DNA of 64,000 bases from Squalus acanthias (Eukaryota), in the NCBI GenBank assembly GCA_030390025.1, contig CM059432.1, positions 62,684,001 to 62,748,000 on the forward strand, written 5' to 3'. The notes under the pieces were generated by a model, which saw only the letters and a program-made list of their open reading frames with translations, searched no databases and had not been told where the DNA came from. Shown one piece after another: positions 5,879 through 52,914 of the stretch. Each line of letters begins with the position of its first letter. The first letter of the stretch is position 1. The position numbers were made by a program, and so were the translations under genes.

Positions 5879-8277
5879 TTGTCAACAGGAGGCATTTTAT
5901 TCCTATGGTTATTATACTAGAAATTCAGTGATTGTGATGAGACAGAATACCAGGAGGAATTTTATCTTCCAGGAGGGAAGCTCAGGCCGTCCTAACATCC
6001 CACTGGCTAGCTGCCTGCCCGACACGGGCGTCCAGAGGTGTCTTGCTAGCTTTGGCCCTACAAAGATCGAGCAGCCCGAAGGCCACCAGGCCGGAGGTGA
6101 GGTACGTTGCGGGATGATTCAGGAGAGTTTCGCAAGCAGGAAGGAGGGGAGCCCAGGGCAGCAGCAGCCCAAACTTTCATTGTGGGGTGCAGAAGAGCAC
6201 AGGGTGGCGGGGTGGGGGGGGGGCTACCAATATTTGAATGTACAACTCAGACTAAATGGTGAAACCCACAACAGTATTGGAGGCTTCAACTAATTATGTT
6301 GCTGTATCTTACAGCTGGAGAGAATGCTTAACCTAATTGGAATAAAAATTGTTCAAACCTTAATACAACTCGAGACAAACCACCAAGACTTACTTCACTA
6401 GACAGTTCTCAGTCATCCATAAATAAGCAGTAGGAAAACATCCTAATTTCTTCAACTATGTCCTACAATTAGACCAAACCAGTCAGTGAGTAAACTATTA
6501 AATGCCTCCCATAACGAAAGCCAGTAATGTAAAAGAAGCAAGTTTGCCATTTATCACTATAGGTAAAATAACACCACTGCAGCAAAGTTATGGCTGAGCT
6601 TATTTATTCAAAACTCAATGGTCCATCATGATAAAAGAAATCAGTTTACAGTAAGGCTAATTTAACATGAATACCATCCAGAGTAAATTGCTTTCAGTCC
6701 AGACAGTGGATAAACAAGGTTCACCACATATTTCTTCCTGAATGCCTCTTTTGTTACTGGTGTGCATTAACAATGCAGAAGTGTAGGACTATGTTTGTTT
6801 TTAGTAAGAAGAAATAGTTCTGAATGCTTATTTTAATTTGTTAAAAGGGCAATGTTGTTCAATATTTTGTAAGCTATTTTTACAAGGTTAACAAAACACC
6901 GCGCATGTAATCATAGACTGTAAGGGAGGGTCATGGCATATTAAAAACTGAGTATGTGTGTGTGGATACACCTACAGACTATGTATTGTGGTATAGCCCT
7001 GTTGCAAATAACCCACATAAAAGAAAGATGAAATTTCACTTTTTGGGATGGGTGGGTTTGACAGATTGTGGCATGAAACAGTAAATTTTATGAGGCTCTG
7101 ATCTTAAGACAGAGCCTCGCTCGATGAGAATGCACACTGGAGAATTTTGTGAGGAGGCCAGCACCAAATTCTTGGTGCTTCAGATTTTCCAAGCATTAAA
7201 ATGAATCACGAGAAAATCGGGAGCGCTGCAAATCGGGCTTATTGACCTCTTGACTTGATTCTCTGATCTGCACTCTAATTGAATGAGGGCCTATACCAGG
7301 AGTGGAGCCTTGCAAAATATACTCCTTGAAAGTCATTAAAGGCGCTATATAAATACAAGTTGTTGTTGTTGAAAGTCGAACTTGCATCCTGTTTGAGTTC
7401 AGATTCAGAGTAGGAATCCCGACTGAAGCATCCTGACATCCACTGATTCATGAAACTGGTTTATTTATATTGTGGGACTGGTTTCGCAAACAATGGGGGG
7501 AAAAAAATGCTACGGTAGCACAGAAACATGGTGGCTCTATTAAAGCTCCTCTTAGCCTTTTCTGCTCCACCAACACTCCATTCTTTCATATTCCCACAGA
7601 AATCAAGACATAATACTCATTCTCCCCCACACGATATTGCTTCAAAGTTGCGATAATCCAGCATTACAAAGTTTCTTTCTTGACACTGATGTTTCCAAGT
7701 CAGTTTTAAAATAATCAAAACTTCATTCCAGTGAATAATTCAGCAGGTGTCATACCGGTAACAGGGTGAGGTGTTGTACGATAATTAAAAGGAAATACAG
7801 CTACTTTCTGATGCATGGTGCTAGGATCTTATAACACCTTCTTTAGAGACATTTTGAATGTACGTACAGCCCTTTCAATTTTCCCATTGGACTGCAGGTG
7901 TCTGAGTGGCGAAGTAATATGAGATACACTGTTCTTATTCAAAAATTGAGGAAAAATCGTAAACACCTATTGATCACATTGGAACCGCTTTCAGAATCTA
8001 AAATAAGTAAAGATTTCCATGTCTTCAGCTCAACAATTTCAACATGAATATGCAGCCCTGGTTTTGTTGGCCATTGCCAAGTACCAGCTTCATCAGTGTC
8101 TACAGGTAAGTTGATCTGACAGGCTTGACACTCATGTACAGCATCTTCTATGTTGCGATCTAGGGAAGGCCACCACACCTGCATTCTAGCCAATCCTTTC
8201 ATTCTTACTATACCAGGATGAACAGCATGTATTTCCTGGATCATACGCTTTCAGAATTTAGTTGAAATAACAACATA

Positions 8278-10057
8278 GGCCAGAATTTTCCGAGGTGGTA
8301 GCGGGCGCGATCGGTGGCAGGTCGGGTGGGAAAGTTGTTATTTTTGACAACGGGTCGAGAACCCGCTGTCATCTCACTCCCACGTGCCTTTCCCCTAAGC
8401 GTGTCTGTCATCGCAGAGCTGACCCGACCGGCAGCGACGGGTGACCCAATTGAAATCATTATCAGGTTTACAGGCACTTAAGAGCCTTTTTTCACTTACT
8501 TTTTAAATTTCCCTGCATGGCCACGGGATTCACGCGGCTCGGGAAACACATCTGTCAACCTGAGGCGGGAGTTCTGTGGCCATTGCTCCAGCTGATTACT
8601 TGACAGCATGAAATGTACAGTAAAAGCTCCCACCTGACATCACTTTCCTCAGGCAGAAGCTGTTGCTCAGTCCATTTCCAGCACAGATTCTGCAGGCTGC
8701 AAGTCTTTCCAGCAAAGTCTCCATCCAGTGTCACCTCATTGGAAGAACTCTCTCACCACTGACAGAATGCTTCTGTCATCTGTACTCCACCTGCCATCTA
8801 TTCCATCAACATGGGTGCCATTTATACTGTCTCACCTTGGTCCTCAGAATCGGACCACGATCAGCCCCAACACCAGCAGCACCAGGCACACCAGCAGCAC
8901 CAACAACACCAACCTTCTCCACAATCAACTGTTGCTGCACAGGACAGAGGGCATCAGCACCCGAGCACATTGCTGCCCGGGAGGCCAGGGATGGCCTCAT
9001 CATGGCCAGATTTAGTTAACTTTACGCTGTACACCCTGGCTGCCACATGATGCGCCAGGTTGGCACCACCCCACACTAACACCATAAAGCATCCCTACAA
9101 TGACCAAGCCATTCCTTTCACACTCATCACCATTGGGGGGGGGCTACCGTTATGTCTCACCATTCACTGCAACTCACTAAGCCACTTCCAAAGGTGCACA
9201 TAAATCTGTCCAAGACCGGAAAGTGTTGAAAATAAAGATTTTTATGTTTGATACCACATTAACAGAAACTTTACATAAACATTAGTTAAAACACCCAAGT
9301 GGCTACCCTTGTGTGTTGTTAGTTGGTATGATTGCACTAGGATGAGGGTGAATGTGAGGGGTGGCTAGTGAGATGGGGATGTGATAATGTAGATAGAGAG
9401 AGAGGGATGTGTAGAGGTGCAAGGTATGTTGGTGTGAGTAAGGATGTGCAGGAGTAGGGTAGGGAAGGCAGAGTGATGAGAATGTGATGAGAGGCACAGC
9501 AGGATTAGGTTGAGTGTGACTTTGCGAACGTTTCCTGATCTAATGAGATCATTGAAACGTTTGCAGCACTGCACCCAGGTCCTCCTGACCACATTCCTGC
9601 TTGTGACCTCTGCAATCTGCAACCAGGCTGTGTTGATCTCCTGGGGGGGTCTCTTCCGCCCATCGGAAGGGAAGAGGACCTCCCTGCGTGCTATGACTCC
9701 CTCCATAAGCATATGGAGGGAGTCATCGGAGAACCTGGGTGCAGCCCTCTGCCTCTGTGCAGTCATTGTCAGTGTTTGCAGCACTCCAATGCTGTAATAC
9801 ACTGACAGCATTATGTTAGATTAAACTTCAAATCTAATGTGGCCATGGTCCCTTTAAAGATCTCGGCTGAAAACACGTCATGAATGATGTCACCAGACCC
9901 GCTCCATCTCATTGGGCTGGGTAATGTGCTAGGTGGGCTTAATAGACCCCATTAAGGTAAGTTCATTTTCAACAGCAGGATGGAGCCAGCAGCGGGGTCG
10001 TGACCTGACATGGCCACCGCCCACACTGGACCCGCTGAGATAAAGAAAATTCCGTCC
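8278..10057 (+). mobile_element. Non-autonomous Harbinger deletion derivative retaining Myb-like exon 1
   Basis: TIR-like ends GGCCAGAATTTTC / GGACGGAATTTTC with ATA TSD. Minus-strand Myb-like frame APRFSDDSL...WLQIA...RTWVQCCKRFNDL; on the plus strand a transposase start (MGAI) lies close to its end (AREARDGLIMARFS*). Confidence 0.85.
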
Positions 10058-10614
10058 ATAAAGTCCGCAAACCAAACCTCCATCTTTGATCGACATTTCA
10101 TCTCTATATCTGCCTTATAATTGTAGTTCTGCTGGCAAAACACCATCATTAGGCCACCCGTTCACCATGTACTCCATAACACGGGATAGTGCAAGGTCGC
10201 ATGCTGTAGCATTACTTATGTCATTGGTCGTGATGGAAAGTGAGTTCAGCTTCTCAGTAAACAATTTCTTGATGGTCAAATCAATACATGAACCTGATAT
10301 AGGAAACGGGACAAAAAATCTGAATTGGCATTCAATTTTGATGGTTATACTTGATGTCAAACTGATAAGCTGGTAAGTGAATAGCCCATCTTTGAATTTT
10401 CACTGAAGCTAAAACAAGTATTCCTCACTTTTCAGAGAATATGAAGGGTAAATGCTTATTTTCAGTATACTGAATGAAAGGACATCCAAATAGATATGTG
10501 AGAAGTTTCTTCATTCCAAATATAACTGCAAGGACTTTACATTTGATTTGTGAATAATTAGTCTCAGAGGCGTAACCCCGCTATTCAAGAAAGGAGGGAG
10601 AGAGAAAACAGCGA

Positions 10615-12206: not shown

Positions 12207-12870
12207 GGGGGGAAAATTGGCTCGCGCCCCTTTCGGGGCGATAACTTCTCGGAGCACTGCTTTTAGCACTCTGAAAAAGTTAGCGCCCTGAGCCCGAAAT
12301 TCAATGGTAGCGCCCCAAGCAGGAGGCGGGGCACGACTGGAAGCGCTCCCCCTCCCTCTTGGGGCGCTCCCATTGAATATCGCGGCGCTACATGCAGATT
12401 AAAGGGGAGGGGCCTAGCACAGTGCGCACCAGGACCCTGCTGGACCACCGGAGAGCGGGGTGCCGGCCAAAGAGCCCGGCACTCAAGAGGAGTGCCGGGC
12501 TGAGCGATTGCGGCTGGCACCCTGCAGGAGGAGTCTAGAGGGAGCAGGTGCTGGCAGGCGGCCTAAAAAAATGGCCGCCCGGCATCTTCCCTTTAATTAT
12601 CGCCGCCCCGGCTGCAAAAACGCCACCCTGAACCTGTCAGACATAGCGTCCGGTGGTAGGTCAGGGGGTGCGAGTGGGGCGCTGCGCACGGCGATGATGT
12701 CATCGCCGGAGGCGCAGCGCCGCGGAGCGCTACCAGCTTCCGCTGCCGTGAACCTCCTGCTGAATTTCACGGGAGGCGTTAGTGGCGCCGCACCCGGGCG
12801 CTAGTTGCTTTGCGCCCCGTTAGCGCCCCGAGGGACGCTAATGGGAGGCGCAAAGGAATCGAATTTTTCC
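12207..12870. mobile_element. Harbinger MITE of the same broad family
   Basis: Ends GGGGGGAAAATTGG ... GAATTTTTCC, TAA/CAA flanks, many TTAGCGCC/GGCGCTAA motifs, CpG-rich. Interrupts a Gypsy gag relic. Confidence 0.8.
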
Positions 12871-13231
12871 CAAGAATTTCTGCATACTCACTTTAGCTCA
12901 ACTATATTCGATACTCTGATTTTTCCAACTAATGGAAAAAAAAGTGACAAGGTAGACCACTACCTAATTAATAAAAATGTCCAATATTCCATCTTTTTAA
13001 CAATGCACTGTCCGTTATGCTTGTCATCAGTCTTGTGTCTGGATAAGCACTCAAATTGGCTAGGTTATAACTAGCTGCTTTTATTTCCAGACCCTCTAGA
13101 ATATTCTGTCAATGAATGATATAAGAATACAAGAGAAATGTAATTGGTACAAAGTGCTTACTCCCATCATGGTGGGAATCTAATGTTCAGTTAACAATAT
13201 TCAAGTGCTATACATATCATATACATTGTCA

Positions 13232-14002: not shown

Positions 14003-14182
14003 GCTGAATTTAGAATTGTTTACAGCCAAAGATGTCATGGAGCTTCAAGTAAAGGTCCTCCACCTGAAGGAAAAGGTCTCTTCCCTGGCTGAGCTTCTCC
14101 TGGAGACAAGCCATGGTGGATTCCCTGTGATTTATCAACTAGAACAAGCCCATGAGGAAGTATTTATAGGAAGCATCACCAG
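14003..14182 (+). CDS. CLC-family chloride transporter (CLC-6/7 branch), exon encoding CBS1
   Basis: Acceptor cttcttcattctcacAG and donor AG|GTGAGC, phase 2/2. Translates (R)LNLELFTAKDVMELQVKVLHLKEKVSSLAELLLETSHGGFPVIYQLEQAHEEVFIGSIT(R); TAxDVM...HxGFPV...GxIxR is the CLC CBS1 pattern. Confidence 0.9.
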
Positions 14183-17366: not shown

Positions 17367-19090
17367 ATGGCAAGATTTAGTTAGGTTGCACCACTGCACC
17401 CATGCGGCAGCCACATGCTGAACCCACTTGTTCCCACCCCTTCACAAGCACAAAGCAGTCCTGCAATTATCAAAGCATCCCTTTCACAGACACCCATTGC
17501 TCGGATTTAAATCTTGTCTTACCATTCATCAGAAGTGAGAAGGCCACTTGCCCGGCAATAATGGGCAAGACTGTAAAGTGGTGCAAAGAAATAATTTTTA
17601 TGTGGTTCAACATTTAAACATAAACTTAACAATGTAAAATTGTGTAACACACCCATGTGCAACTACAAATGTTTTATCTTCCTTTTCCTACTACTCCTAT
17701 GTCGTGCAACCCCTGTGGCTTCAGCAGAGGTAGAGGCAGGCTGCTCACATACTTGCTCTGACTGCTGAGATGCTTTTGGCCGACGTTCTCTGGGTTTTGG
17801 AGCCCGTAAGGGCCCCGCCAAAGATTGCTGCACCTGCCATCGGGACACGAGGCAGCATGTGGGGCATTGACTAAGGGGGCTTGCAAAGGGTGAGAAGTGG
17901 AAGTCCCCACTTCCCTGTTTCCTTTCTTCATCTTCCCTCTCATGGCCTACCTGCACTTGCCTGCTAGCAATGAGCCAGAGAGCACTTTGCTGCACATCAG
18001 TGTGGCGATGATTGGCCAAGGCTAGGTTTTGATCAATCCTATTTAAGGTGGTATTCAGAGTGTGCAAGCCATTGGTGAGTACTAGCATGCACTCATTTGA
18101 CTGCCGTGCTTGATGCTCCATTCAGGTGGCCACTCTTTCCATGGACGAGCACATCATGGCTAAGGCATGCGACATCATGCCACTCATGCTTGAGACAGAC
18201 TCCTCCATTCTCTCTGTAAGCGTGCAGAGTGCAGCTGGAAAGTCTGCCAGAATCTCTCAATTTTTGCTGCTGTTCCAGAATTATCCTCTTCGTTGACAGC
18301 CCCTGAGGTTCAGTATCTGCGTCCAGCTGAGCAGAGCTTGGAGCATCTTGCCCCCTCCAATGAGGACTCTCCACTGCTGTCCTTGTCTCCACCATCTGCT
18401 CTTTCTCACATGTGATGTATGAGGCACCAGGTGACAACACAACTATCTGTCTTACTGGTCCCACCGACTTGCATGTATCTGAGCTGGTGCTTGGTCTGCA
18501 TGAGTCCTGTGACAGTGCACCCTCAGAGTGAGTGACCTCCTCTGAGGAGTCGTCATCGTCCTCCGGCACCATCTCCTGCGGGACAGTTGATAGGCCTGTG
18601 GGAGATTAAAGACATGAATTAGAACTGTAATGATAAGAATGATTTAAGTGAACATTATGCACATGTTCATATTTCATTGGCTGTTGACATCAAGTCAACA
18701 TGAGTGAGTGTTGTATGCCATGTGGCTGTGTGATATTCAAATCTGTCACCAGGAAACTGGGAGGCCCCCATCTCTCCATCTCCAATCAGCAGTCCGCCGA
18801 CACTCGGTTTATCTCTCCTCCTCTACAGCTGTCAGTGTGGTGATGGCTGGAGGGTCACCTCTGGTTCTCTGCCTCTCCCTGGTGTTCTGTGCTCTCTTCT
18901 CCTGCAAGTAGGGAAACAAGAGACCTTTGAGTGAGAATAATGGAATGTGTGGAACGAATGGATGGACAACATTTGTTGAGGGTGACTATGAGGGAGAGGC
19001 GTGACATTGCTTTAAGATGAGGGTGAGTGCCAGTGGTGGATGGTCACATGGGGATGTGAGGAAGTGCATAGACAGAGCGGGATGGGTGCA
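17367..19090 (+). mobile_element. Harbinger fragment: transposase C-terminus plus Myb-like exon 2-3 relics on -
   Basis: atggcaagatttagttag (MARFS*) at about 17368. Minus-strand frames 17663-18572 resemble exon 3 of the intact Myb-like gene (LAGPLRAPKPR, QPASTSAEATGVARHRSSRKRK). Confidence 0.75.
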
Positions 19091-20121
19091 CTGAATGTTT
19101 GGAAGGTAGCAAATGTAACCCCGCTATTCAAGAAAAGAGGGAAAGAGAAAACAGGGAACTACAGTCCAGTTAGCTTGACATCAGTTGTCAGGAAAATGCT
19201 GGAATCCATTATGAAGGAAGTGGCAACAGGACACTTAGAAAATCATAATATGATTAGGCAGAGTCAACATGGTTTTATGAAAGAGAAATCGTGTTTAGCG
19301 AATTGATTAGAGTTTTTTGAGGATGTAACTAGCAGCGTAGATAAAGTGGAACCAGTGGATGTAGTATATTTGGATTTCCAAAATTCATTCGATATGGTGC
19401 CACATAAAAGCTTGCTACGCAACATAAGGACTCATGGGGTTGGGGCTAATGGACAGAAAACAGAGAGTAGGGATAAACTGGTCATTTTCCGGTTGGCAGG
19501 CTGTAAACAGTGGAGTGCCACAAGGATCAGTGCTTGGGCCTCAGCTACTTACAATCTATATTAATGACTTAGATGAAGAGACCGAGTGCAATGTATTCAA
19601 ATTTGCTGACGATACAAAGCTAGGTGGGAAAGTAAGCTGTGAGGAGGACACAAAGGGATATAGACAGGTTAACTGAGTGGGCAATAAGGTGGCAGATGGA
19701 GTATAATGTGGGGAAATGTGAGGTTATTCACTTTGGTAGAAAGAATAGAAAAACAGAATATTTTTTAAATGGTGAGAAACTATTAAATGTTGGTGTTCAG
19801 AGAGATTTTGGGGCTAAAAATTCAGTTGGTTGCGCCTCCCGTTAGCGCCTTAAGAGGGCGCTAATGGGGCGCAAAGCAGCTAGCGCCCGGGCGCAGCAAT
19901 GTTTGCGCCGCTCGCGAACTTAACTAGACATTTTGCGGCGGCGCTAAACTTTATCGCCGCGGTCCCCTGCGCGCGCAGATTCTGACGTCATACGAGAGTG
20001 CAACGCCCTTGTGGCGCCCTGGAGCAGAATTTCAGTGGTGCCCCCATCCTTACCGCCTGGCGCATCCAACGACCGGTAGAGTGGAACGCTAACAATCGCT
20101 GTGGGGCTGGGGGGGGGGCGC

Positions 20122-20129
20122 TATTTAAA
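20122..20129 (+). promoter_or_regulatory. Candidate TATA box of the Harbinger transposase gene
   Basis: TATTTAAA about 200 bp upstream of the ATG; conserved in the MITE copy (ctttaaatag at about 25521, opposite strand). Confidence 0.45.
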
Positions 20130-20323
20130 GGGGGCCTCTTCCTGTCTTTCTCTGTGGTTGACATTTTTGCACCACTCGTTCTGAGAGAGAGAGAGAGATT
20201 CGGAGAGAGAGAAAGAGAGACTTGTGCATTGAGTCAACGCTGTGTGAGGTAGTTTTGCCTACTGATCCTAACTTCGCTGGTACTTTGGTTTCTGGCCTTC
20301 ATAACTTTGCTTGCTAAGAGACT

Positions 20324-21354
20324 ATGGGGGCTGCACTGATGGGGGGCGTCGTCCTGCGCCAGCTGAATCGGAGGAGACAGAGACGCAGAGAGAGAGTGGC
20401 AATGATGGCCAGACGGAGGAGGGCCAACAGGCGTCTGTACAGGAGAGCTTACCCTCCCAGGGTATATCGTGGCCAGCTCTCCTACATTCATATGTCTGAT
20501 GAGCAGTGTCTGCGAAGGCTGCGCTTCAGCAAGGAGGTGGTCACTGAGCTCTGCCACCTGCTGCAGCCAGATCTGCAGCCTCAACTGAGGTCCAGGACGT
20601 CTCTGTCGGTGGCAGTGAAGGTCACAGTGGCTCTGAACTTTTATGCTACTGGCTCATTTCAATCTGCTGTTGGAGACATCGCCAATCTCTCCCAGTTCGC
20701 GGTGCATTGCTGCATCCGGCAGGTCACAAATGCCCTCTTTAAAAGGAGACGAGAGTACATCTCTTTCCCCATGACCCCAGACAAGCAGCAAGAACGCGCT
20801 CTGGGCTTTGCGAGGATAGCGGGCTTCCCCATGGTGCAGGGCGCCATTGACTGCACGCATGTGGCTTTGCGTGCTCCGCATGAGAATGCCGAGGATTTCC
20901 GGAACAGAAAGGGGTTCCATTCCTTGAATGTTCAGTTGGTCTGTGACCACAGACAGCTGATACTCGCTGTCAATGCCCACTATCCTGGCAGCTGCCACGA
21001 TGCATTCATCCTGCGCCAGACTACTGTGGCAGAACTTTTCGAGGCACCGCATCAGCCAGTTGGTTGGCTTCTCGGGGACAAGGGGTATCCACTGAGCACC
21101 TGGCTGATGACACCGCTCCGTACGCCCAACACCCCTGCTGAGCTGCGGTACAACGAGAGCCATCAAGCTACCAGGAACATCGTTGAGCACACAATCGGCG
21201 TGCTCAAGCAACGGTTCCGCTGTCTGGACCATTCTGGAGGAGCCCTGCAGTACTCGCCTGAGCGAGTTTCCAACCTCGTAGTTGTGTGCTGCATGCTGCA
21301 TAACATGGCAATCCTCAGGACCCAGCCAATGCCACCAGGCCTTGGAGCACCACC

Positions 21355-21385
<31 letters not shown>

Positions 21386-21484
21386 GAGGAGGATGATCAG
21401 CAGCAGCACCAAGGCGTGAGGGCGGCCCACAATGGTGAAACTGCAAGGGCCGTCCGTCAGCGGCTGATAGCAAGCCGCTTCTAG
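20324..21484 (+). CDS. Harbinger transposase (HARBI1-like, DDE_Tnp_4 type), 386 aa
   Basis: Uninterrupted ORF with GAIDCTH, NRKGFHSLNVQLVCD, YPGSCHDA, LLGDKGY, RNIVEHTIGVLKQRFRCL and CCMLHN motifs and an acidic tail. Confidence 0.95.
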
Positions 21485-21795
21485 GCCCCTGCTGTGGAAA
21501 TGGCTTCTGCCATTGAGAACAGCATGAATGAACCCAACACGCAACCCCTAAGCCGGCCAAGGCACCAATGATTCCAAACACCAAACATATATATTTTGAG
21601 TACCAAAACTTATTTATTTTACAAACTCTGTGTGTGTCATTTCTTCATGACAAACTCATACAAATAAACACAAAAAAACAGTCATTACCATAACTGGTTC
21701 TCACAACCTGGAGATCATGTCCAAAACACTCAACAAAAGTTTGACCACGAACCTCGGCCTTTAATAAAAAAATGACCAGCATTTTGTCACACCTC

Positions 21796-22751
21796 CTACT
21801 TTTTGCCCATCGAGGGTGAACTCCTTCCCGTGCGCACTTCCCCCCTTCTAACCCTACTGCTCCTCCGTAATGGGACCTCAGTGGCTGCAGCAAGGCTGGT
21901 GGAAGGCTGCTGACTGTCAGACCCTGACAATGCAGATGCCCTTGAGGGACGGCCTCGACCAGTTCTGGGCCTGGAGGGCCCGTCTGCAGACTGCACCAAC
22001 TCTGCATGGGCGGCAGCAGTCTGTCCTACAGGCGGTGGCAACTGCAGTGGAGGAGTGACAGTGTTGGCAGCAGGAATGCTGTCATCTTGAGCGAGGACAG
22101 CAACTCCCTGCTCGACCGGCACACTGGCACTCCCACGGGGCAGCACCTCAGCATCCGGAGCAATCTGCTGGAGCACAGATTGCTGGCCTGCTGCGGCGCG
22201 GTGAGAGCCCCGGGGAAATGTGTCCGAACCAGCGAGGATGGCAGCAGACAGTGCTCGCGTGGCCTCAATCTGAGTCTGCATGAGAGCAGTCTGAGATTGA
22301 ATTGCAGCACTGAGCTTCAGTGTCGCATCCGCCTGCGCTGCAGCGAAGTGCTCCACACTCCTTGCCAGTGCTTCAATGCATTCGGGCACCCTACCCACTG
22401 CAGCCATGAGCTCAGTGTGCATGCCCACCGCCTGGGTGTTCATTTCCGCGATCAGCCGCTCCTCCTCTGCGTCCAGTGCAGCAGGACTCGCTGGCATACT
22501 CTCCCTCCGGGGAGAAGGCCCCCGTTCTTCCCTACCCCCATGGCGTTGCTGCAGCCCGCTGGGTCCTGGAGCTTCACCCTCATCAGACCCTTCCCCCCTG
22601 CTCCCCTCCAGGGAAGGCGTGTCCTCAGTGTCGGCATGGGCTTCCTCGGGAGAGGGTGGCACTGATGCTCCGGCTTCCTCTTCCTCCTCGGCTGCAGCCT
22701 CACTCCCACTGGCAGCTTCAGGGCCCGTCTCCTCAGCTGGTGAATCACCAT
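21796..22751 (-). CDS. Harbinger Myb/SANT-like protein, exon 3
   Basis: Acceptor cctccctgctttcAG, phase 1, in frame with ORF 21796..22662. Total CDS is 237+163+956=1356 nt (451 aa), with an acidic segment, a probable coiled coil and a basic C-terminus. Confidence 0.85.
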
Positions 22752-22910
22752 CTGAAAGCAGGGAGGTACAAGAGTGGCTTTAGCGTGAGGACAGGGTGGC
22801 AGTAAGGGAGGAATAAGTGCAGCGAGTTAGTAAGTTGGATTGAAAGTGTCAAAGGCTGGTGTTGTGAGGGACAAGTGGAAGGACAGAGGACAAAAAGGTG
22901 ATGACCTTAC

Positions 22911-23073
22911 CATTGCTGTCCAGAACGGGGTCGGCGTCTCCAGTGGCGACGGGACCGATCACCCGGCTTGCCACAATCCTGTGGACGCGCTCCTCAAGAT
23001 CGCTGAGGGGTTGCAGCTGAGGCCGCCCTCCACCCGTCCGTTGCTGCTGTCTCCTATTATGAGATAGCTTGGC
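22911..23073 (-). CDS. Harbinger Myb/SANT-like protein, exon 2
   Basis: Acceptor tcctttttcttgcAG. Translates AKLSHNRRQQQRTGGGRPQLQPLSDLEERV...DSN, with the conserved TGGG. Donor G|GTAAGG; 163 bp, phase 0 to 1. Confidence 0.88.
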
Positions 23074-23103
23074 CTGCAAGAAAAAGGACGGCGTCTGAGT
23101 AAA

Positions 23104-23211
23104 TATACAGCCATGGTCTTGCCTGATGTGCCTCCCATAGGTGAATAGCCCTTACTGTATACAGCCATGGTCTTGCCTGATGTGCCTCCCATAGGTGAAT
23201 AGCCCTTACTG
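23104..23211. repeat. Perfect 54-bp tandem duplication in intron 1 of the Myb-like gene
   Basis: tatacagccatggtcttgcctgatgtgcctcccataggtgaatagcccttactg at 23104-23157 and 23158-23211. Confidence 0.95.
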
Positions 23212-23357
23212 TATGCAAAGTGTGGAATGTGTGTGTGTGCTTCATGAAAGGGCCATAGGTGTTGGATGAGTGTTGTTAATTGTGGTTTTAAGACCCTCTG
23301 GCCATAGAGTGAGGTTGAGATGGAGGAATGGAGAGGTATTGCAAAAAAGCCACTCAC

Positions 23358-23594
23358 CCTGACGACCCGAGTGAGGTCGTTGAACTTTTTCCGGCATTGG
23401 ACATGGGTCCTGGGCACCATGCTCCTGGAGGAGACGTGCTGAGCCACCTCCCTCCACACTCTTCTGTAGTCGCGCGGCAAAGGCCTCCTGCCACTCTCTG
23501 GGTACAGTATTGATCTTCGGCGCTCCACCGCGCCAACCAGAGCATCCAAGGCCCGCTCGCTGAAGCACTGAGCTCGTTCTCTCACCCTCTCCAT
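23358..23594 (-). CDS. Harbinger Myb/SANT-like protein, exon 1
   Basis: MERVRERAQCFSERALDALV...WREVA...RTHVQCRKKFNDLTRVVR (trihelix/Myb-like), then donor GTGAGT; 237 bp, phase 0. Confidence 0.9.
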
Positions 23595-24180
23595 CCTTGG
23601 CTGGAAAATGGAATCTCAGGTCTCTCCAGGTCGAGATTCAAGGCTGCAATGAGCAGGGTGTGGCTGGGGAGCAAGATCGCCCCCCCCCTTTAATAACTGG
23701 CCGGCGCCAGTGTGTCTCTGTTCCCTCGCTAACTGGCAGCACCTGCGCTGCGCCCGCGCTCTGAGTTAGCGCCTCACTCCTCGGCCTTTGCGCCTTAAGA
23801 CAGGTGTGCAGCGCCTGATTTAGTGCTCCAATCACCTCCCGGGGCGTTAAAACTCAAGTTTCCAGTCAGTGGCGATAATTAGCGCCAGGCGCTAATCTTT
23901 GCGCCCGGCCGATAATTGCGCCCCAAATGGGGCGATACTGAATTTTTCCCCCTTGGTGTTCTTGTACAGGAAACACAGAAAGTTAACATGCAGGTACAGC
24001 AAGCAATTAGGAAGGCAAATGGCATGTTGGCCTTTATTGCAAGGGGTTTGGAGTACAAGAGTAAGGAAGCCTTACTACAATTGTACAGGGCTTTGGTGAG
24101 ACCACACCTGGAGAACTGTGCACAATTTTGGTCTCCTTATCTGAGGAAGGACTTACTTGCCTTAGAGGTGGTGCAACAAG

Positions 24181-26390
24181 AAGCTTCCCCTTAAATGCAT
24201 TGATACTATTCGCCTCAACTACTCCCTGTGGTAGTGAATTCCACATTCTCACCAGTCTCTGGGTAAAGAAGTTTCTTCTGAATTCCCTATTTGATTTCTT
24301 GGTGACTATCTTATACTGATGACCTCTAGTTTTGCTCTTCCCCACAAGTGAAAGCATCCTCTCTATGTCTGCTCTATCAAAACCTTTCATAATTTTAAAG
24401 AACTCTATTAGGCCTTCTCTTTTCAAGAGAAAAGAGATCTAGCCTGTTCATCCTATCCTGATAGGTAGAACCTCGCAGTTCTGGTATCATCCTTGTAAAT
24501 CTTTTTTGCACCCTTTCCAGTGTCTCTATATCCGTTTTATAATATGGCGATCAGAATTGTACAAAATACTCCAAGTGTATTCGATACAAGTTTAGCATAA
24601 CTTCTCTACTTTTCAATTCTATCCCTCTCGTGCTTGGTTTGCTTTTTTATGGCTTTGTTAACCTGTGTCGCTACTTTTAGTGATTTATGCATCTGTACTC
24701 CCAGTCCCTTTGCTCCTCTACCCCATTTAGATTCTTATTTTCCAAGTAATATGTGACCACCTTATTTGAAAATGTAGTACCTCACACTTTTATATGTTGA
24801 AATTAATTTGCCAATTAGATGCCTATTCTGCAAGTTTATTAATGTCATCATGTAATTTGTTGCAGTTCTCCTCAGTATTGACTATCCCCCTCAATTTGGT
24901 GACGTCTGCAAATTTAGAAATGATGTTTTTGATTCTAAAGTCTAAGGGGGAAAAATTCAGTCGCGCCCCGTTTGGGGCGCAAATATCGTCCGGGCGCAAA
25001 AATTAGCGCCTGGCGCTAATTATCGCCACTGACTGGAAACTTCACTTTTATCGACCCCTGAGGTGATTGGAGCGCTAAATCAGGCGCTTCACACCTGTCT
25101 TAAGGCGCAAAGGCCGAGGAGCGAGGCGCTAACTCAGAGCACTGGCGAAGCTCATGTGATGTTAGTCAGCAATGGAACACACACTCAATGGCACCGGCCA
25201 GTTCTTAAAGGGGATGGTTGATCTTGCTTTCCATCCACATTCTGCTCATTGCAGCCTTGAATCCCGGCCTGGAGAGACCTGCACATCAAATCTGCTGGAA
25301 AGAACAATGGAGAGTACCAGGGAAAGAGCTTAGAGTGCAGCCCCAACAGTCTCTTCTAAATCGATACAAGGAATGGCAAATCAAAATGAACCTGCAAAGT
25401 GCTGCTCAGTACCCAAAACTCCTTCACACAACGTTGAATCTCTCCAGATGTCTCTCTCTCTCTCTCTCAGAATGCGTAGTTCAAAAATGGCACCAACAGT
25501 AAAAGGCAGGAAGCGGTCACCTTTAAATAGCGCTCCCCCAGTCCCTTCATGACTGCAGAACGCTCCCCTCAACCTGTCATTGCTAGCGTCAGGCGGTAAG
25601 GCAGGGGGCGCCACTCAATATCCGCTCCGGGGCGATACCGGGGCGTTGCACACTCGACTGACGTCACGATCTGCCGGCGCAGGAGATCGTGGCGGTAGTG
25701 TTTAGCGCCGCCGCAAAATGTCTAGTTAAGTTCGCGAGCGGCGTAAACATCGCTGCGCCCGGGCGCTAGCTGCTTTGCGCCCCATTAGCGCCCTCTTAAG
25801 GCGCTAACGGGAGGCGCAACCAACTGAATTTTTCCCCCTAAATCATTAATATAAATTGTGAACAACAGTGGTCCTAGCACTGATCCTTGTGGGACCCCAC
25901 TTCCCACTTTCTGCCACTCTGAATAGCTACCCTTTACCCCTACTCTCTGCTTTCTGTCTTGCAGCCAGCTAGCTATACATTCTGCTACTTGTCCCCTGAC
26001 TCCGCATGCTCTGACCTTATTCATTAGTTTATTATGTGGTACCTTATTGAAGGCCTTTTGGAAATCTAGATATATTACATGTTCTACATTACCCTTGTCT
26101 ACTCTCTCTGTTACCTCCTCAATGAATTCAATGAGGTTAGTCAAGCAAGACTTTCCCTTTGAAATCCAAACTGACTATTCCTTATTATATTTTCTGGTTT
26201 ATAGGTGTTCTTCTGTTTTCTCCTTTAGTAGGAATTCCATTATATTTCCTACCACCGATGTTAAGCTGACTAGTCTATAGTTCCCTGGACATGTTCGATC
26301 TCCTTTCTTAAATATAGGTATAATGTTAACTATCCACCAGTTCTCTGGCACTGCACCTTTTTCTAACGAATTATTAAATATGTGATATGT
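24181..26390 (-). mobile_element. CR1 fragment hosting the MITE at 24946-25838
   Basis: ORFs 24034..24426, 25785..26144 and 26199..26402 carry CR1 RT motifs. Confidence 0.88.
24946..25838 (-). mobile_element. Non-autonomous Harbinger element (MITE, 893 bp) related to 19811-23952
   Basis: Perfect TIR GGGGGAAAAATTCAGT; TAA TSD at 24943-45 and 25839-41. One terminal ~135 bp is nearly identical to the autonomous left end. Inserted in a CR1. Confidence 0.93.
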
Positions 26391-30804: not shown

Positions 30805-32209
30805 AATATAAAAACAGAAAATGCTGGAAATACTCAGCAGGTCAGGCAGCATCTGTAGAGAGAGAAACAGTTAACATTTCGGGTCGATAACCCTTCGTCA
30901 GAACTGGAAAAAGTTAGAGATGTAACAGATTTTTAAGCAAGTGCAGGGGCAGGGAAAGGGGGGAGGGGAGGAAAGAACAAAAGGGAAGGTCTGTGATAGG
31001 TTGGAAGGCAGCAGAGATTAAAAGACAAAAGGGATGATGGTGCAAGGCAAAAGGAGATGGTAATGGGACAAGTTAAGAAACAAAAGATGACTCTAGATGC
31101 GGTGTAAATGGCAATGGCAGAATCATCAACAGCTGCCATGTGAGAGAAAAAAAAAATAGAAAAAAAAAATAGGGTCAGAGGTTATGGTCTGAAATTGTTG
31201 AACTCGATGTTGAGTCCAGAAGGCTGTAAAGTGCCTAATCGAAAGATGAGGTGCTGTTCCTCGAGCTTACGTTGAGCTTCGTTGGAACAGTGTAAGAGGC
31301 CGAGGATGGAGAGGTCAGAGTGGGAGTGGAGTGGAAAATTAAAGTGACAGGTGACCGGAAGCTCGGGGCCACGCTTACGGACTGAATGGAGGTGTTCTGC
31401 AAAGCGGTCACCCAATCTGCGTTTGGTCTCCCCAATGTAGAGGAGACCACATCGTGAGCAGCGAATACAGTGTACTAAATTGCAAGAAGTACAAGTAAAT
31501 CGCTGTTTCACCTGGAAGGAGTGTTTAGGGCCAGTGGGAAGGGAGGAGGTAAAAGGGCAGTTGTTGCATCTCCTGCGCTTGCACAGGAAGGTGCCATGGA
31601 AAGGGGAAGGGGTGTTGGGGGTGATAGAGGAGTGGACTAGGGTGTTGCGGAGGGAGCGGTCCCTTCAGAATGCTGAAAGGGGAGGGGAGGGAAGGGGAAG
31701 ATATGTTTGGTGGTGGGATCATGCTGGAGGTGGCAGAAATGGCGGAGGATGATCCGTTGAATGTGGAGGCTGGTGGGGTGAAAGGTGAGGACAAGGGGAA
31801 CCCTATCGTGGTTCTGGGAGGGAGGGGAAGGGGTGAGAGCAGAAGTGCAGGAAATAGAACAGACACGGTCAAGGGCCATGGCAACCACGGTAGAGGGGAA
31901 TCCTCGGTTGAGGAAAAAGGAAGACATATCGGAAGCACTAGTATGGAAGGTGGCATCGTCAGAGCAGATGCGGCGGAGACGGAGAAACTGGGAGAATGGA
32001 ATAGAGTCCTTACAGGAAGTGGGGTGGGAGGAAGTGTAGTCCAGGTAGCTGTGGGAGTCAGTGGGCTTATAGTGAATGTTTGTCAATAGCCTATCCCCAG
32101 AAATGGAGACAGAGAAGTCGAGGAGGGAAGGGAAGAGTCGGAGATGGACCATGTGAAAGTGAGGGAAGGGTGGAAATTGGAAGCAAAGTGAATGAAATGT
32201 TCTAGTTCT
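30805..32209 (-). mobile_element. Penelope-like element, 5'-truncated (RT C-terminus, GIY-YIG endonuclease, terminal repeat)
   Basis: YKPTDSHSYLDYTSSHPTSCKDSIPFSQFLRLRRICS and CSRCGLLYIGETKRRLGDRFAEHL...QPSGLNIEF; candidate TSD tttatattt. Confidence 0.9.
30868..30906 (-). ncRNA. Minimal type I hammerhead ribozyme motif in the Penelope terminal repeat
   Basis: Minus strand: CAGUU-CUGACGA-A-GGGU uaucg ACCC-GAA-AUGU-U-AACUG; 5-bp stem I, 4-bp stem II, stem III reduced to AUGU (ACGU in the other copy). Confidence 0.7.
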
Positions 32210-33123
32210 TTTATATTTGATTTTTAAGCTGTTTTATAACCATTTGCTAGCTTGCATATTTGGCTTTATATACACCTAGAATTTCAGAGGCTCTGAACTG
32301 CCCACAATTCAGCACCAGCCCACAATAATTCATCCTAGAGCTTTTAGTTATGAATTATCTTTAAGTTGTGTAGTTGCATTGAAATAAATGAGGAAGCAGC
32401 ACTATTGCCCTGTGCTGCTGGGCCTACCGAATTCATTGCCACAGCTAAGAATAGCACTGCCAATTCCATGCACCGACCAGGAGTCAAAGAGAGGATAGCA
32501 TCAGACCAAGGATGAAAAGTAATGTAGGGGACTACAGAATTTCTAACAGAAGAGTCAAGCTAGTTTTAAACACAGTGCAAGTATGTGTAGCATCATGCGA
32601 GGGGCAGGAGACTAGCTGTTGAGGGCAGGAGGGTGGCACTGGGCCTGGGGCAGGTAGGGTGGAGCAACAAAATTACTTTGATATATTGAAGTAAAATTCA
32701 ATACAATTTTGAACCAAGGGAGTAGGAGGTATTCAACATATCAAAGTTCAATATGTCAAAATTCCACTGTCTGTGTAACTGGTATAATTAAATACATTAT
32801 TATTACAAAAAAATTACATATACAGCACAGAAACAGGCCATTCGGCCTAACTAGTCTGTGCTGGTGTTTATACTCCACACGGGTCTCCTCCCATTCCATC
32901 TACCTCATCTCGCCTTTCAGCATATCTTTCTATTCCCTTTTCTTTCATGTACTCTTCTAGTTTCCTTTTGAAAGCATCTAAGTTTGCCTCAACTACTTCC
33001 TGTGGTCGTGAGTTCCACATTCTAACCACTCTCTGAGTAAAGACATTTTTCTTTATTTCCCTATTGGATTTATTAGCAACTATCGTGTATTTATGGTCCC
33101 TAGTTTTGGATTCTTCCACAAGT

Positions 33124-41164: not shown

Positions 41165-44100
41165 GTTTTAATTCTTATTCTTGGACTGGGAGGATGAGCA
41201 GAGGTCATGCAGAGCAGGACAAACTGCTAGAGGAGAGAGGGGTAGAAGGGCGCTCAGCAGAAGGCCATATCCACAGAGGGTGTTTAGGGAGCAATTCTTG
41301 TACCTGAACTTTAGTGACGACCGATACTGGAGACGTCTGCACTTCACTAAAGAGGACGTCACTGAAATCTGCCACCTGCTGCAGCCACAACTCCAACCTC
41401 GGAGCAGGGCATGGACCGCATTGCCTGTGGCTGTCAAGGTGACTGTGGCTCTGAACTTCTGTGTCTAGCTCCTTCCAGGCTGCTGCTGGAGATCTAAGCA
41501 ACATCTCTCAGTTTGCAGTGCATTTCTGCGTAAGAACATAAGAACATACTAAATAGGAGCAGGAGCGGGAGCAGGCCATTCGGCCCCTCGAGCCTGCTCC
41601 GCCATTTAATGAGATCATGGCTGATCCGATTTTGCCCTCAACTCCACGTTCCTGCCCGCTCCCCATAACCCTTGACTCCCCTGTTGCTCAAAAATCTGAC
41701 TATCTCAGCCTTGAATATATTCAATGACTCAGCTTCCACAGCTCTCTGGGGTAAAGAATTCCGAAGATTCACGGCCCTCTGAGAGAAGAAATTCCTCCTC
41801 ATCTCCTCATAAGCGAGGTCACTGAGGCTCTCTGTGCAAGAGAGACAACTTCATCTCATTCCCTCTTGCCAGAGAGAAGCAGGCGGAGTGTTTGCAAGGA
41901 CTGCAGGCTTCCCCATGGTGCAGGATGCCATTGACTGCATGCACATTGCTTTGCGTCTGCCTCATGTCAACTCTGCCATGCAGCTGAACCGAAAGGCATT
42001 CTACTCCCTCAATGTGCAGCTGGTGTGTGACCACAGGTAGCGCATCATGTAGGTCAATGCCTGGTATCCTGGCAGCAATCATGATGCGTTCATTCTGCGG
42101 CAGTCCTCTGTGCCAGCTGTATTTTACAACCACGGCAAACCAAAGGTTGGCTACTGGGTGACAAGCGTTATCTGCTAACGACATGGCTCATGACTCCGGT
42201 CCGCATCCCACACACACTTGCACAGCAGGCATACAACGAGAGCTATGCTGCCACAAGAAATCTTATAGAGCAGACCATTTGCAGCCTAAAGCAACGATTC
42301 CACTGCCTGGACCGCTCTGGAGGAGCCCTGCAGTACTCAGCTGAGCAGGATTCAAGATTTGTGGTGCTATGCTGCATGCTGCGCAACCTGGCCATTATGA
42401 GGGAACAGTCCTTGCCACCACCTATCAGGCGAGAAGCTGAAAAGCAGGAGCATGAGGAGGAGGAGGTGGAGGAGGAGGTGGAAGAGGAGGAGTAGGAAGG
42501 GAGGCTGCAACCTAGACTCTCCCTTTCTGCCCTGGCTGTACATGAAGAACTAATTCAATTGCGATACCAGTAACCTCAACTCCAATTCACCATTCACCAA
42601 TAGTCCCACACCCCTTCCCTTTCCTCTGTCACTGACCATCAAATTGATCTCTTGCTCATAGTTGCAAAAATAAAAGGCAACACAAAATACACATTCCAAT
42701 CAGAATTTATAAATTAAATCATACCATAGTGCATACAAAAATAAACTAATCACCCTTGTGCATTCCATTAGTGCCTCTTTCGTGTGCCTTTGGAGGTCCT
42801 AGTGCTCCTACGAGGTGCTTCCCCAGTGGCTACGACATGGCTTGTGGAAGGCTGCTGACCTTCAGTTGAGAAGACTGCAGATGGCCTTGGAGGGTGACCT
42901 TGAGCAGCTCTGGGCCTACATGGCCCGGCTGCAGACTGCACCATCTCGACCTGTGCCACAGCAGTCTGGGCAACAGCAAGGGCACTGGCGGAGTGGCAGG
43001 GGTGGGAGCACAAATGCTGTCATCCTGAGAGGGGACAGCAGATTTGTACTCCATGGAGCCATTGCCACTCTCCTGGGGTGGCACCTCTGCAATCCTAGTA
43101 CTCTGTTGGGGAGCAGATTGCTCCTTGACATTGAACATAGGCTTTCTGGCAGGCTTTCCAGTGCACCAAGCATTTAGGTCTGTACACCCATCGGCCTTCT
43201 TCTGTGGCCTGGCCCATTGACGTCATCATCTGAGTCCTCTGCAGCAGAACATGTGTGCGACCTTGCCCTCCAGTGAGCTGGTGCCCGCACTATCCTTTCC
43301 CCCTGCCCTGGCTGCAGCGCACTTGTGTCCGGTGCAGATCCCGTCTCTATGCTATCCTCTAAATTTCGCGCAGTGCCATTATCTGAGCTGGTGGCTGCAC
43401 CTGTGAAATTGAGTGACTGTGTGTCTTCATCTTCACTGTCTTCTTGCTCTTCCTCCACTGCCTGGGCAGGTTGCAGTTCTTGGGAATCTGAAAGGAAAAA
43501 GGGACAAGGGTTGGGTTGTGTGAGGGGAGAGGAGAAAGTAAGAAGTGTATGCTTACACTATCAACTGCTTCTCAGTCAGAAGAGATTGTGGGATGAGGGA
43601 GAAGTGGGATGAGAAAAGGAGGATTAGGTATGCGGATACCCTCATCTTCAATGGCTTCAGCACCGCCGGTGACCATGGCCTCAGCCATGGCCCTTCCCAT
43701 AATGACCAGCAACCATCTCCTCCATGGAGGTTAGAACATGCAAGCGCGCCTCTCCCCCTCCGGTTAGTTCTTGCTGTCTCAGGTTGTGCGCTACCTTCTC
43801 CTGCAAGAGAGGGTGAAATGTGTCAGTGAGTGTCGTGCAATCTGTTTGGGTGATGTGGCTGTCATTGTGAATAGCTGCCAGTGTGTGCAATCTGTGAGAT
43901 GTAGGTTTGAGGCCTGCAACAGTGCTAGTGTGTGAGGGTGAGGTGAAGCATATGAATTTTAGGTATGAGTGCTGATTGATAGAGATTGTTGGTAGGTGAG
44001 TGATAGGGGTGTGGTGAATTGAGCAGTGGCTGAGGCTCGTGGTGCAGTTGGTAGGATATAGCATTTGAAGATGCAGTCACTGACCTTGACCACTCGTGTG

Positions 44101-44616
44101 AGGTCATTAAACTTCTTCCTGCACTGCATCCATGTTCTTGGAGTTATACGCCTGGCATTGACCTCCACGGCTATCTCTTGCCACTGCCTTCTGAGCAAGT
44201 GCCTGGAGGGCCTCCTGAGGATACAAGACACATCTCCTCTGTTCCACCTCTTCAACTAAGACTTCCAGTGCAGTTTCTGAAAACCTTGGTGCTTGCTCTC
44301 TCCCATGGTCAGCCATTGTTGATTGTTGCAGAGCACACTATTCAGAATGATCTCAACCCCTCCAACAGCCACAATGCACCTCCCCTTTAAGAGGTGAAGG
44401 CTGGCTTTAAGTAGTGCTTGGCACTCACGATATTGGGCTCCCTGCTGATACGTGCAGCCAATGAACAGGACGGGGAGTGCTGGCTGAATGCAGAAATCAT
44501 GGTAATGCGCAGGCAGCACAAAGTTGGCATCCTGCCTGCTTGCAATCAACGGACGCGGGGTAATCGCAAATCGCAATCCCTGCGCCCGTTTTTGGGGGTT
44601 GGCCAATTTAACCCCC
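41165..44616 (+). mobile_element. Decayed two-gene Harbinger (transposase pseudogene on +, Myb-like pseudogene on -)
   Basis: Fragmented transposase at 41181-42570 (LPVAVKVTVALNF, AIDCMHIAL, FHCLDRSGGALQYS). Myb-like exons at about 44085-44310, 43640-43800 and 42768-43486. Right end AATTTAACCCCC followed by TAA; left TIR not found. Confidence 0.85.
41532..41810 (-). mobile_element. Short CR1 3' end inserted in a Harbinger transposase relic
   Basis: taagaacataagaacata...ggccattcggcccctcgagcc CR1 tail. Confidence 0.85.
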
Positions 44617-44684
44617 TAAATGTCTCAGTCTCTCTGTTAATAGCTGGTTCATAGTTCAATTGTTCATAGTTTGCATCATTACAA

Positions 44685-45490: not shown

Positions 45491-45709
45491 AAACCCTACA
45501 TCAACCAATCAGCAATGACAGTCCATGCTAACTTTTCTCTCCAACGCACTTACATTATTTTTCGAACATTGGGACTTCGACACCTGACTGTTGTTGACTT
45601 GAAAAACCGTGTTCTTGGCATCATTACACGGAAAGATCTGATGGCGTTCCGACTTGAAGAGAAACTGCTGGAATCTGAGAATTTGAAATCAGACAATGAT
45701 AAAAGATAA
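45491..45709 (+). CDS. CLC-family gene, terminal coding exon encoding CBS2
   Basis: Acceptor ctcttttgtctgttgcctatAG. Translates KPYINQSAMTVHANFSLQRTYIIFRTLGLRHLTVVDLKNRVLGIITRKDLMAFRLEEKLLESENLKSDNDKR*; FRxLGLRHLxVV...GxxTRKDL is diagnostic of CLC-6/7-type CBS2. Confidence 0.93.
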   Translation, partial: KPYINQSAMTVHANFSLQRTYIIFRTLGLRHLTVVDLKNRVLGIITRKDLMAFRLEEKLLESENLKSDNDKR

Positions 45710-51227: not shown

Positions 51228-52914
51228 GGCCATGATTTTATCATCAGTGTCGGGATGGTGGCGGGAGAGCTGGTTTCCGGGTTCCAGTCATGATCCTGGC
51301 TGCAGCCGCTCTGTCAAAGGGATTTTCCCTTGATTGGCCTTGTTAAGCCCGCCCTGCGGGCTTCCCGGCCAATTAACAGGAAGCGGGTCTGATGACGTCA
51401 TTTGATGACGTGTCATCAGCCGGTTTCCTTAAAGGGACCACGGCCACATTTAGATTGACAGTTGTTCTGTCAGTGTTTTACAGCATTGAGGTGCTGCAAA
51501 CACTGACGAGCACTGCACAAAGGTGGACGCTTGCCCCCAGGCTCTCCAATGACTGACTCCCTCCATATGCTTATTCCAAAGGCGGAAGAGACCTCCCCAG
51601 GACACCAACACAGCCTGGTTGCACATTGCACAGCAGGGCAAAAGCAGGGATGTCATCAGGGGTCCCTGGCTGCAGTGGCGCAAACCTTTCAATAATCTCA
51701 GTGGATCACGAAATGTTACTGCAAAGCCACACTCAAACTCACCCTGCTGTGCCACTCAACACATCCCCATAACTCTGCCTTCCATACCCTTCTCCTGCAC
51801 ATCGTAACTCACACCAACTTACCTTGCACCTCCACCCAACCCTCTCTATCTACTTTATCACTTCCCCATCTCACTAGCCACCCCTCACCCTCACCCTCAT
51901 CCTACTGCAAGCATACCAACTAACAACACACAAGGGTAGGCACTTGAGAGGTTTAGCCAATGTCCATGTGAAATTTCTGGTAATGTGTTGTCATACAGTG
52001 AAATCTATTTTTCCAACACTGTCCTTTATTGGATAGATCTGAGCGCACCTTGAGAAGTGTCTTACTGAGTTCCAGTGAAAGTTGAGACATAACTCCCCCC
52101 CACCCCCTGCTATAGTGTGCATGGAATGGCTTGGACATTAAAGGGATGCTTTATGGTGCTGGTGTGGGATAGTGTCAACCTGGCGCATCATGCGGCAGCC
52201 AGGGTTAACAGCGTCAAGTGAAGTAAATCTGGCCATGGTGATGCCTCCCGGGCAGCAATGTTGTCAGGGGCTGATGCGCTGTGTCCTGTGCAACATTAAG
52301 TGATGGCGGAGAAGGTTGGTGTGCCTGGTGATGTTGGCATTAGGGCTGATCGTGGAAGGATTGAAAGAACCAAGGTGTGATTTTTTTCAAGGGCACCGAT
52401 GTTGCTGCAATAGATGGCAGCTGCAGGTGAGATGACAGAAGCGATCTGTCAATGGTGAGAGAGGTTGTTTCAATGAGGTGGCACTGGACATACAGTTGTC
52501 TCTAAACACTTGCAAGCTAAAGAAATCTCTATATGTATTATAAATGAAGTAACCAATATTTTCTGCACTCTGAAACTGACCATCTGCAACATGGCATCCT
52601 TTACACCACTTCTGCAGCTGTCAGCTTATCAGATAAATCAGAGCAGACTCAAATCATGCCAAGTTGAGCTGACGTGTTCCCTGAGCAGCGGGTAACCCGT
52701 GGGGGAGAACGTAAAATTGGAAGGAAGCTTCAAAATAGTATTAAATTAGCTGTTAACAAGCCATTTAACTAGCTCAATTGTATGCCCCTGCTCTATTGAC
52801 AGACCTGACACCTTTGCTATTTGACAGCGGACCCGCCTCCAAACCCGCCCTCTGAGCGCTGGCAAATTTGCGGCCAAAGTAACTGTTAATACCTGCCAGA
52901 GGAAAATCTGCACC
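51228..52914 (-). mobile_element. Second, more decayed copy of the 8278-10057 Harbinger derivative, in opposite orientation
   Basis: Collinear reverse-complement similarity to 8278-10057 (e.g. aagggaccacggccacatttaga; Myb-like relic at 51520-51720); ends GGCCATGATTTT ... AAAATCTGCACC. Confidence 0.8.

Follow-up and report, generated by a model that had tools for sequence, protein, structure and literature searches.

An intact two-gene Harbinger transposon within a CLC6/7-like gene intron of Squalus acanthias: a low-divergence, probably quiescent copy of an abundant chondrichthyan family

Does a Harbinger transposon that retains both of its genes in a shark genome still move, or does it owe its integrity to something other than recent activity? 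The question is raised by a 64,000-nucleotide stretch of Squalus acanthias DNA (assembly GCA_030390025.1, contig CM059432.1, positions 62,684,001 to 62,748,000, forward strand; hereinafter the window, to which all coordinates refer), in which an earlier note made from the sequence alone had recognized a complete two-gene Harbinger element and proposed that it might be recently mobile. We find that this element (19811-23952; 4,142 bp, with TTG on either side) is a complete two-gene transposon of the PIF/Harbinger (PHIS) superfamily, of the autonomous type, on every superfamily feature tested. With a probability of about three in four, we interpret it as a full-length, low-divergence and probably quiescent copy of a very abundant chondrichthyan family, an interpretation supported by its anatomy, its 3-bp duplication, its coding capacity, the presence of a non-autonomous partner and the large size of the family, all of which could be demonstrated.

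The element carries the short terminal inverted repeats (TIRs) and the target-site duplication (TSD), 3 bp long, of the superfamily, as well as NuwaI-like GGG ends. Its two TIRs (Table 1) differ solely at positions 4-5 of their 16 bp. The element interrupts a decayed CR1-type long interspersed nuclear element (LINE), and with the element and a single TTG taken out, the site aligns collinearly with two CR1 paralogues elsewhere in the window. This exact spacing confirms the boundaries and the duplication of 3 bp, as the earlier note had read them. Moving the boundary by one base to obtain a TTA target, an option prompted by the TTAGG found in close CR1 relatives, requires more changes and was rejected. 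The further superfamily hallmark of dispersed copies with miniature inverted-repeat transposable element (MITE) derivatives is seen in a MITE of the window and in a very high read depth in three genomic-type sequencing runs (see below).

The transposase is an uninterrupted frame of 386 aa that matches PF13359 (E 2.7e-41). Its DDE triad consists of D176, D252 and E288, each shared by most of 111 aligned homologues (89, 85 and 71, respectively), and the full D-D-E combination is kept in 47 of the 100 homologues that span all three catalytic positions. The best 75 protein matches all come from sharks and rays, with the top one at 68% over 90% of the transposase. The closest proteins to those of the element are 'putative nuclease HARBI1' and 'myb-related' predictions from Pristiophorus, Heptranchias and other sharks and rays; these are automatic gene models, mostly of decayed copies and of other families. 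An AlphaFold model of the transposase has a mean predicted local distance difference test score of 89.5. Foldseek searches with this model yielded nothing that reached E 0.001, the weak top rows being DDE transposases and integrases, and a sequence search of the PDB found no solved relative (0 matches). Among the HARBI1-like proteins, we also observed pairs that are closely alike across distant sharks or rays (Pristis/Scyliorhinus, Narcine/Mobula and Carcharodon/Chiloscyllium) and have lost at least one catalytic residue; in cartilaginous fish, these are candidates for transposase genes that have been domesticated.

The second gene encodes a Myb-like protein of 451 aa from three exons, the first of which contains a PF13873 domain (E 2.5e-9). 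Its introns of 284 and 159 nt are both of the GT..AG type, and the spliced frame is open. When 66 homologues were searched, 59 of the 64 that could be aligned to the spliced model reached past residue 95, as against 5 of 64 for a version reading through the intron (counted from the printed rows). A Pristiophorus Myb-like protein spans all three exons (39% over 490 columns), and a decayed relative in the same window (~41200-44620) has both the gene order and the Myb exon split of the element. By homology, the three-exon model thus appears well supported, and the earlier descriptions of both genes can be retained. As a query, exon 1 recovered a single homologue among longer proteins and exon 3 recovered none; an exhaustive search found 65. 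Residue 10 is an arginine in 31 of 53 homologues and a cysteine here through a CpG-type change, a letter that is rare in the sequencing runs X1 and X2. Intron 1 harbors a perfect 54-bp tandem duplication that possibly marks this copy or its subfamily. Separately, a Myb-like protein at least 90% conserved across Hypanus, Hemitrygon and Mobula is a candidate domesticated ray gene.

The ends of the element are marked by a short subterminal motif, TTAGCGCC, of which the window has 15 copies where 0.55 would be expected, every one inside Harbinger-type ends: six within the element's subterminal regions, six in a non-autonomous MITE of 893 bp and three in older MITEs. By analogy with the 9-bp subterminal motif bound by the Myb-like protein of zebrafish Harbinger3_DR (PMC9710019), these repeats are candidate Myb-binding sites. 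The 893-bp MITE has GGGGG TIRs and agrees with the left end of the element at 126 of 130 positions; the donor of a candidate mini-intron upstream of the transposase (Table 1) has apparently been lost in it. The earlier note had cautioned that the two substitutions in the left TIR might immobilize this copy, and single TIR changes are indeed described as lowering the mobility of mPing (PMC9921582). However, an older and distant MITE (62043-62855) shows the same asymmetry, with a left-type end in GGGCT and a right-type end in GGGGG. On account of this one independent case, GGGCT is probably not damage, a tolerated natural variant being at least as likely, and the caveat is probably wrong. Another related MITE (12207-12872) has CpG-rich ends and two copies of TTAGCGCC, with its left-type end short of two terminal G. 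In our scan for TIR and TSD pairs, a threshold of 10/14 gave 6 pairs as compared to 3-7 in shuffled sequence, and only pairs matching at 12/14 and 14/14 were trusted.

Retained CpGs had been listed among the signs of recent mobility. The retention itself is clear, with observed-to-expected ratios of 1.15 and 0.84 at the ends of the element versus 0.35-0.39 for the window, but it does not indicate youth: the ratios are 1.15 and 0.90 in the 893-bp MITE and 1.12 in an older one, such that MITEs diverged by 13-23% or older have ends as CpG-rich as those of the element. As to the choice of target, the flanks agree with the 15-bp consensus of Harbinger3_DR (PMC3016246) at 8 of 15 positions for the element and 9 of 15 for the MITE, scores that 4.4% and 1.3% of the positions in the window attain, respectively. 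Of the two duplications, the TAA of the MITE fits TWA, whereas the TTG of the element does not.

To place the copy within its family, 22 sequencing runs were compared by 31-mers, and four of them (three genomic-type and one, X16, guessed to be RNA) were aligned to 18901-24900; runs X19-X22, with a 31-mer share of 0.10 or less, were left out. The element is partly present in 20 of the 22 runs (11 studies), with 41-77% of its 31-mers found in eight organisms, equivalent to a divergence of ~0.8-2.8%. The three genomic-type runs yielded 42,499, 75,056 and 78,001 contigs on the aligned interval, CR1 flanks included, covering 30 of 30 bins. Within the element, contig depth extends in single contigs to ~10^4, the lowest listed values being 9-30; such depth is no copy number, and its sum was not used as one. 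The element thus belongs, as a single copy, to a very abundant family common to several organisms, and we infer that hundreds or more near-identical copies exist.

The nearest sampled words lie ~0.8-1% away from the element. In neutral simulations, both frames stayed open in 9-47% of cases at 1% divergence and in 26-66% at 0.5%; therefore, intact copies are to be expected in a large family. Intactness, which the earlier note had taken as a sign of recent mobility, loses that meaning here: the copy is intact mainly through low divergence (~1%) and the size of its family, rather than through any demonstrated activity or selection. Using the mutation rate of the epaulette shark, given as 7e-10 per base per generation (PMC10587355), 0.84% divergence translates into ~12 million generations, with a range of 6-60 million for the 95% interval, an estimate whose rate comes from a different species and which leaves CpG effects aside. 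It shows nonetheless that a 'young' shark element is not necessarily a recent one. The copy is probably silent or transcribed merely passively with the host intron.

The letter comparison covered 40 of 86 difference rows (34 of these inside the element) and 15 of 232 joints, a scope that itself counts against this interpretation. In its favor, at 12 of the 34 in-element sites, the letter of the window is in the minority in all three genomic-type runs; six of the 12 are coding, all in the Myb-like gene, and five of these six are non-synonymous. Other observations weigh against it. Most of the minority letters are carried by 10-30% of the depth in run X1 and thus mark a subfamily rather than private decay. 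In none of the three displayed transposase rows is the window letter outnumbered in every one of these runs, a pattern in keeping with a better-conserved transposase. The GGGCT end is, as noted, probably not damage. Moreover, the source species is perhaps absent among the runs, in which case the ~1% may include a distance between species and the copy could be younger. Finally, the TTG duplication is neither TWA nor CWG.

Chief among the alternatives is that this copy, or the subfamily to which it belongs, still acts as a source at present, whose two genes undergo splicing and germ-line expression and mobilize full-length copies together with MITEs. In its favor, the two frames and their splice sites, the catalytic triad, the TATA-like, poly(A) and subterminal motifs and the TSD are all intact, and the GGGCT end recurs in the distant MITE. 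Four runs guessed to be RNA contain 32-36% of the words of the element, and one 131-nt contig of X16 matches Myb-like exon 2 without a mismatch. Against this, intron depth in X16 is like exon depth, the ends of intron 1 are each spanned by an unspliced contig and no joint matching an intron occurs among those displayed. Eleven of the 15 displayed joints skip the element altogether; we rejected them as evidence of an empty allele in view of their short sides (40 letters or fewer) and of the extra letters, characteristic of other CR1 copies, that most of them carry. The highest share of the words in any run is 77%, the age estimated above is considerable and the Myb-like protein has the cysteine at residue 10. 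We therefore regard an active source as unlikely. Equally doubtful is its extension to an active shark family with naturally asymmetric ends (GGGCT/GGGGG) and a relaxed YWR-type target, in which an unmodified copy supplies both proteins and moves the MITE.

The near-identity of the family in many organisms could alternatively reflect recent horizontal spread among sharks, and Harbinger transfer among marine animals has been reported (PMC8437027, PMC9179366). However, the runs that share the element at ~0.8-2.8% divergence cover at least 94% of the decayed CR1 flanks as well, which is what related sharks should show, and the slow mutation rate of sharks makes such similarity normal; we accordingly hold this explanation to be very improbable. 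Still harder to sustain is a domesticated transposase/Myb pair under host selection comparable to HARBI1/NAIF1. Both frames are intact, domestication of Harbinger genes is described as recurrent in jawed vertebrates (PMC9392472) and several of the shark and ray homologues appear domesticated. In contrast to single-copy genes of the HARBI1/NAIF1 type, which are without TIRs or TSD, the element keeps its TIRs, TSD and subterminal motifs, has a LINE around it and is a member of a family with a very high copy number; the preponderance of non-synonymous coding differences (5 of 6 displayed) also speaks against host selection, leaving this possibility barely credible.

The element arrived by cut-and-paste transposition, landing in an old CR1 LINE inside the CLC6/7-like intron and duplicating 3 bp. 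By extrapolation from zebrafish Harbinger3_DR, the Myb-like protein would bind both the subterminal TTAGCGCC repeats and the transposase, and, as in the zebrafish and rice systems, might carry the latter into the nucleus and position it. The DDE transposase would then cut at the TIRs and reinsert the element at a loosely palindromic target, with MITEs such as that at 24946-25838 being presumably moved in trans by the same two proteins. A two-protein mechanism of this kind is described in PMC2836001, PMC9710019 and PMC9392472.

The known systems are compared here through the available parts of their published descriptions. The zebrafish pair Harbinger3_DR/Harbinger3N_DR resembles the element in its DDE and Myb-like genes, 3-bp TSD and non-autonomous partner (PMC2836001, PMC3016246, PMC9710019), and the repeated TTAGCGCC recalls its subterminal motif. 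By description, Harbinger3_DR differs in being a reconstruction with a CWG duplication, whereas the element is natural with TTG (TAA in its MITE). NuwaI elements are likewise close in form, as animal transposons of ~4.4 kb with GGG-starting TIRs of 12-61 bp and DDE and Myb/SANT open reading frames (ORFs) (PMC4482050), and the element, with its 16-bp TIRs and 4,142 bp, fits this range. Nevertheless, NuwaI is defined by CWG duplications (PMC4482050) and neither site here (TTG, TAA) has CWG; for this reason we do not file the element under NuwaI. The available account of NuwaI gives 11 families with two intact ORFs and names among the hosts 12 bony fish and no cartilaginous fish (PMC4482050).

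Likened to the family by description only, Harbinger-Snek of sea kraits is also a high-copy family with intact two-ORF copies, non-autonomous derivatives and intronic insertions, and is possibly still active (PMC8437027). It is reported with 269 fully intact copies in Laticauda colubrina and with RNA over both ORFs of an intact copy in L. laticaudata (PMC8437027); in contrast to the family studied here, its case is RNA-supported and includes a horizontal arrival 15-25 million years ago (PMC8437027). The rarity of intact vertebrate Harbingers that the earlier note implied is thus contradicted. Abundant, transcribed two-gene Harbingers in slowly evolving or large genomes are described for the coelacanth (LatiHarb1) and the newt Pleurodeles waltl (PMC3787270, PMC5741667, PMC9179366), again likened by description only and from other host lineages; according to the same sources, large or transcribed Harbinger families occur in coelacanth, newt and teleosts, and a natural Harbinger insertion has been described in a nematode (bioRxiv 10.64898/2026.05.26.728016).

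Shark Harbingers have been little described. One survey, in its available text, records no Harbingers in the elephant shark (PMC9179366), while a reef-shark genome paper names them in one sentence among the commonest DNA transposon types (PMC12498223). Our literature search, with Repbase and Dfam (which may already include the family) outside its scope, found no study of a shark Harbinger family. As far as the available accounts go, the vertebrate Harbinger tested for transposition is the zebrafish reconstruction. The shark copy, found in nature with its two genes, a MITE of its own and motifs that are candidates for Myb binding, offers a ready substrate for assays and structural work. Were it active after all, vertebrates would have a Harbinger system that is natural rather than reconstructed, and cartilaginous fish an active DNA transposon; without evidence of activity, it is an addition to the catalogue, intact vertebrate copies being published already.

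Table 1. Features of the element and its surroundings, in window coordinates (TIR, terminal inverted repeat; TSD, duplication of the target site; UTR, untranslated region)
Feature	Position	Strand	Remarks
CLC6/7-like gene exon, CBS1 region	14003..14182	+	ClC-7 match weak (E 0.06); CBS cluster score 0.94
Interrupted decayed CR1-type LINE, 5' portion	19100..19807	+	
Left TSD TTG	19808..19810	+	empty site collinear with CR1 paralogues
Left TIR, 16 bp, starts GGGCT	19811..19826	+	14/16 match to right TIR
Left subterminal region, three TTAGCGCC	19842..19947	.	19842+, 19857-, 19940-
TATA-like box 5' of transposase	20122..20129	+	motif only
Possible 70-nt 5' UTR mini-intron, GT..AG, CTAAC branch-like motif	20249..20318	+	candidate
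Transposase ORF, 386 aa, stop-free, DDE triad D176/D252/E288	20324..21484	+	
Convergent 3' ends	21613..21770	.	AATAAA at 21663, 21763 (+) and 21618 (-)
Myb-like exon 3: acidic stretch, helical segment, basic C-terminus	21796..22751	-	
Myb-like exon 2	22911..23073	-	
Perfect 54-bp tandem duplication, Myb-like intron 1	23104..23211	.	many family copies seem to be without it (reads)
Myb-like exon 1, Myb/SANT domain PF13873	23358..23594	-	residue 10 is C, family R
TATA-like motif 5' of Myb-like gene	23688..23695	-	motif only
Right subterminal region, three TTAGCGCC	23766..23895	.	23766+, 23879+, 23888-
Right TIR, 16 bp, starts GGGGG	23937..23952	-	
Right TSD TTG	23953..23955	+	
Interrupted CR1-type LINE, 3' continuation	23956..24185	+	
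Non-autonomous MITE, 893 bp, perfect GGGGG TIRs, TSD TAA	24946..25838	-	77-87% to element ends
CLC6/7-like gene last coding exon, CBS2 region	45491..45709	+	ClC-7 740-800, E 1.9e-12

The element is placed in an intron of a predicted CLC6/7-like chloride/proton exchanger gene because it lies between the exons for the CBS1 and CBS2 regions, in agreement with the intronic position given earlier. When 235 open frames that lie outside repeats were scanned with Pfam, one clear non-repeat match emerged, the CBS domain of the last coding exon, and exons joining the two were not found in the intervening 31 kb. The gene resembles ClC-7 only distantly.

Harbinger debris is dense in this intron. The decayed two-gene relative at ~41200-44620 is of another family (~70% DNA identity) and has itself received a LINE tail at ~41540-41810, while a further decayed Harbinger fragment was read by eye at ~17370-19090. 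Across the window, decayed transposase or Myb-like fragments are seen at 1569-1673, 9539-9733, 49111-49950 and 51562-51726. Other mobile elements are represented by fragments among 7942-8250, 10428-10580 and 31182-32233, which include long terminal repeat (LTR) retrotransposon pieces with an integrase zinc finger and RNase H, along with what we take, by eye, to be one or more pieces of a Penelope-like element. On the reverse strand at 55486-57759, an open CR1-type reverse-transcriptase frame of 757 aa marks a LINE copy that has decayed little.

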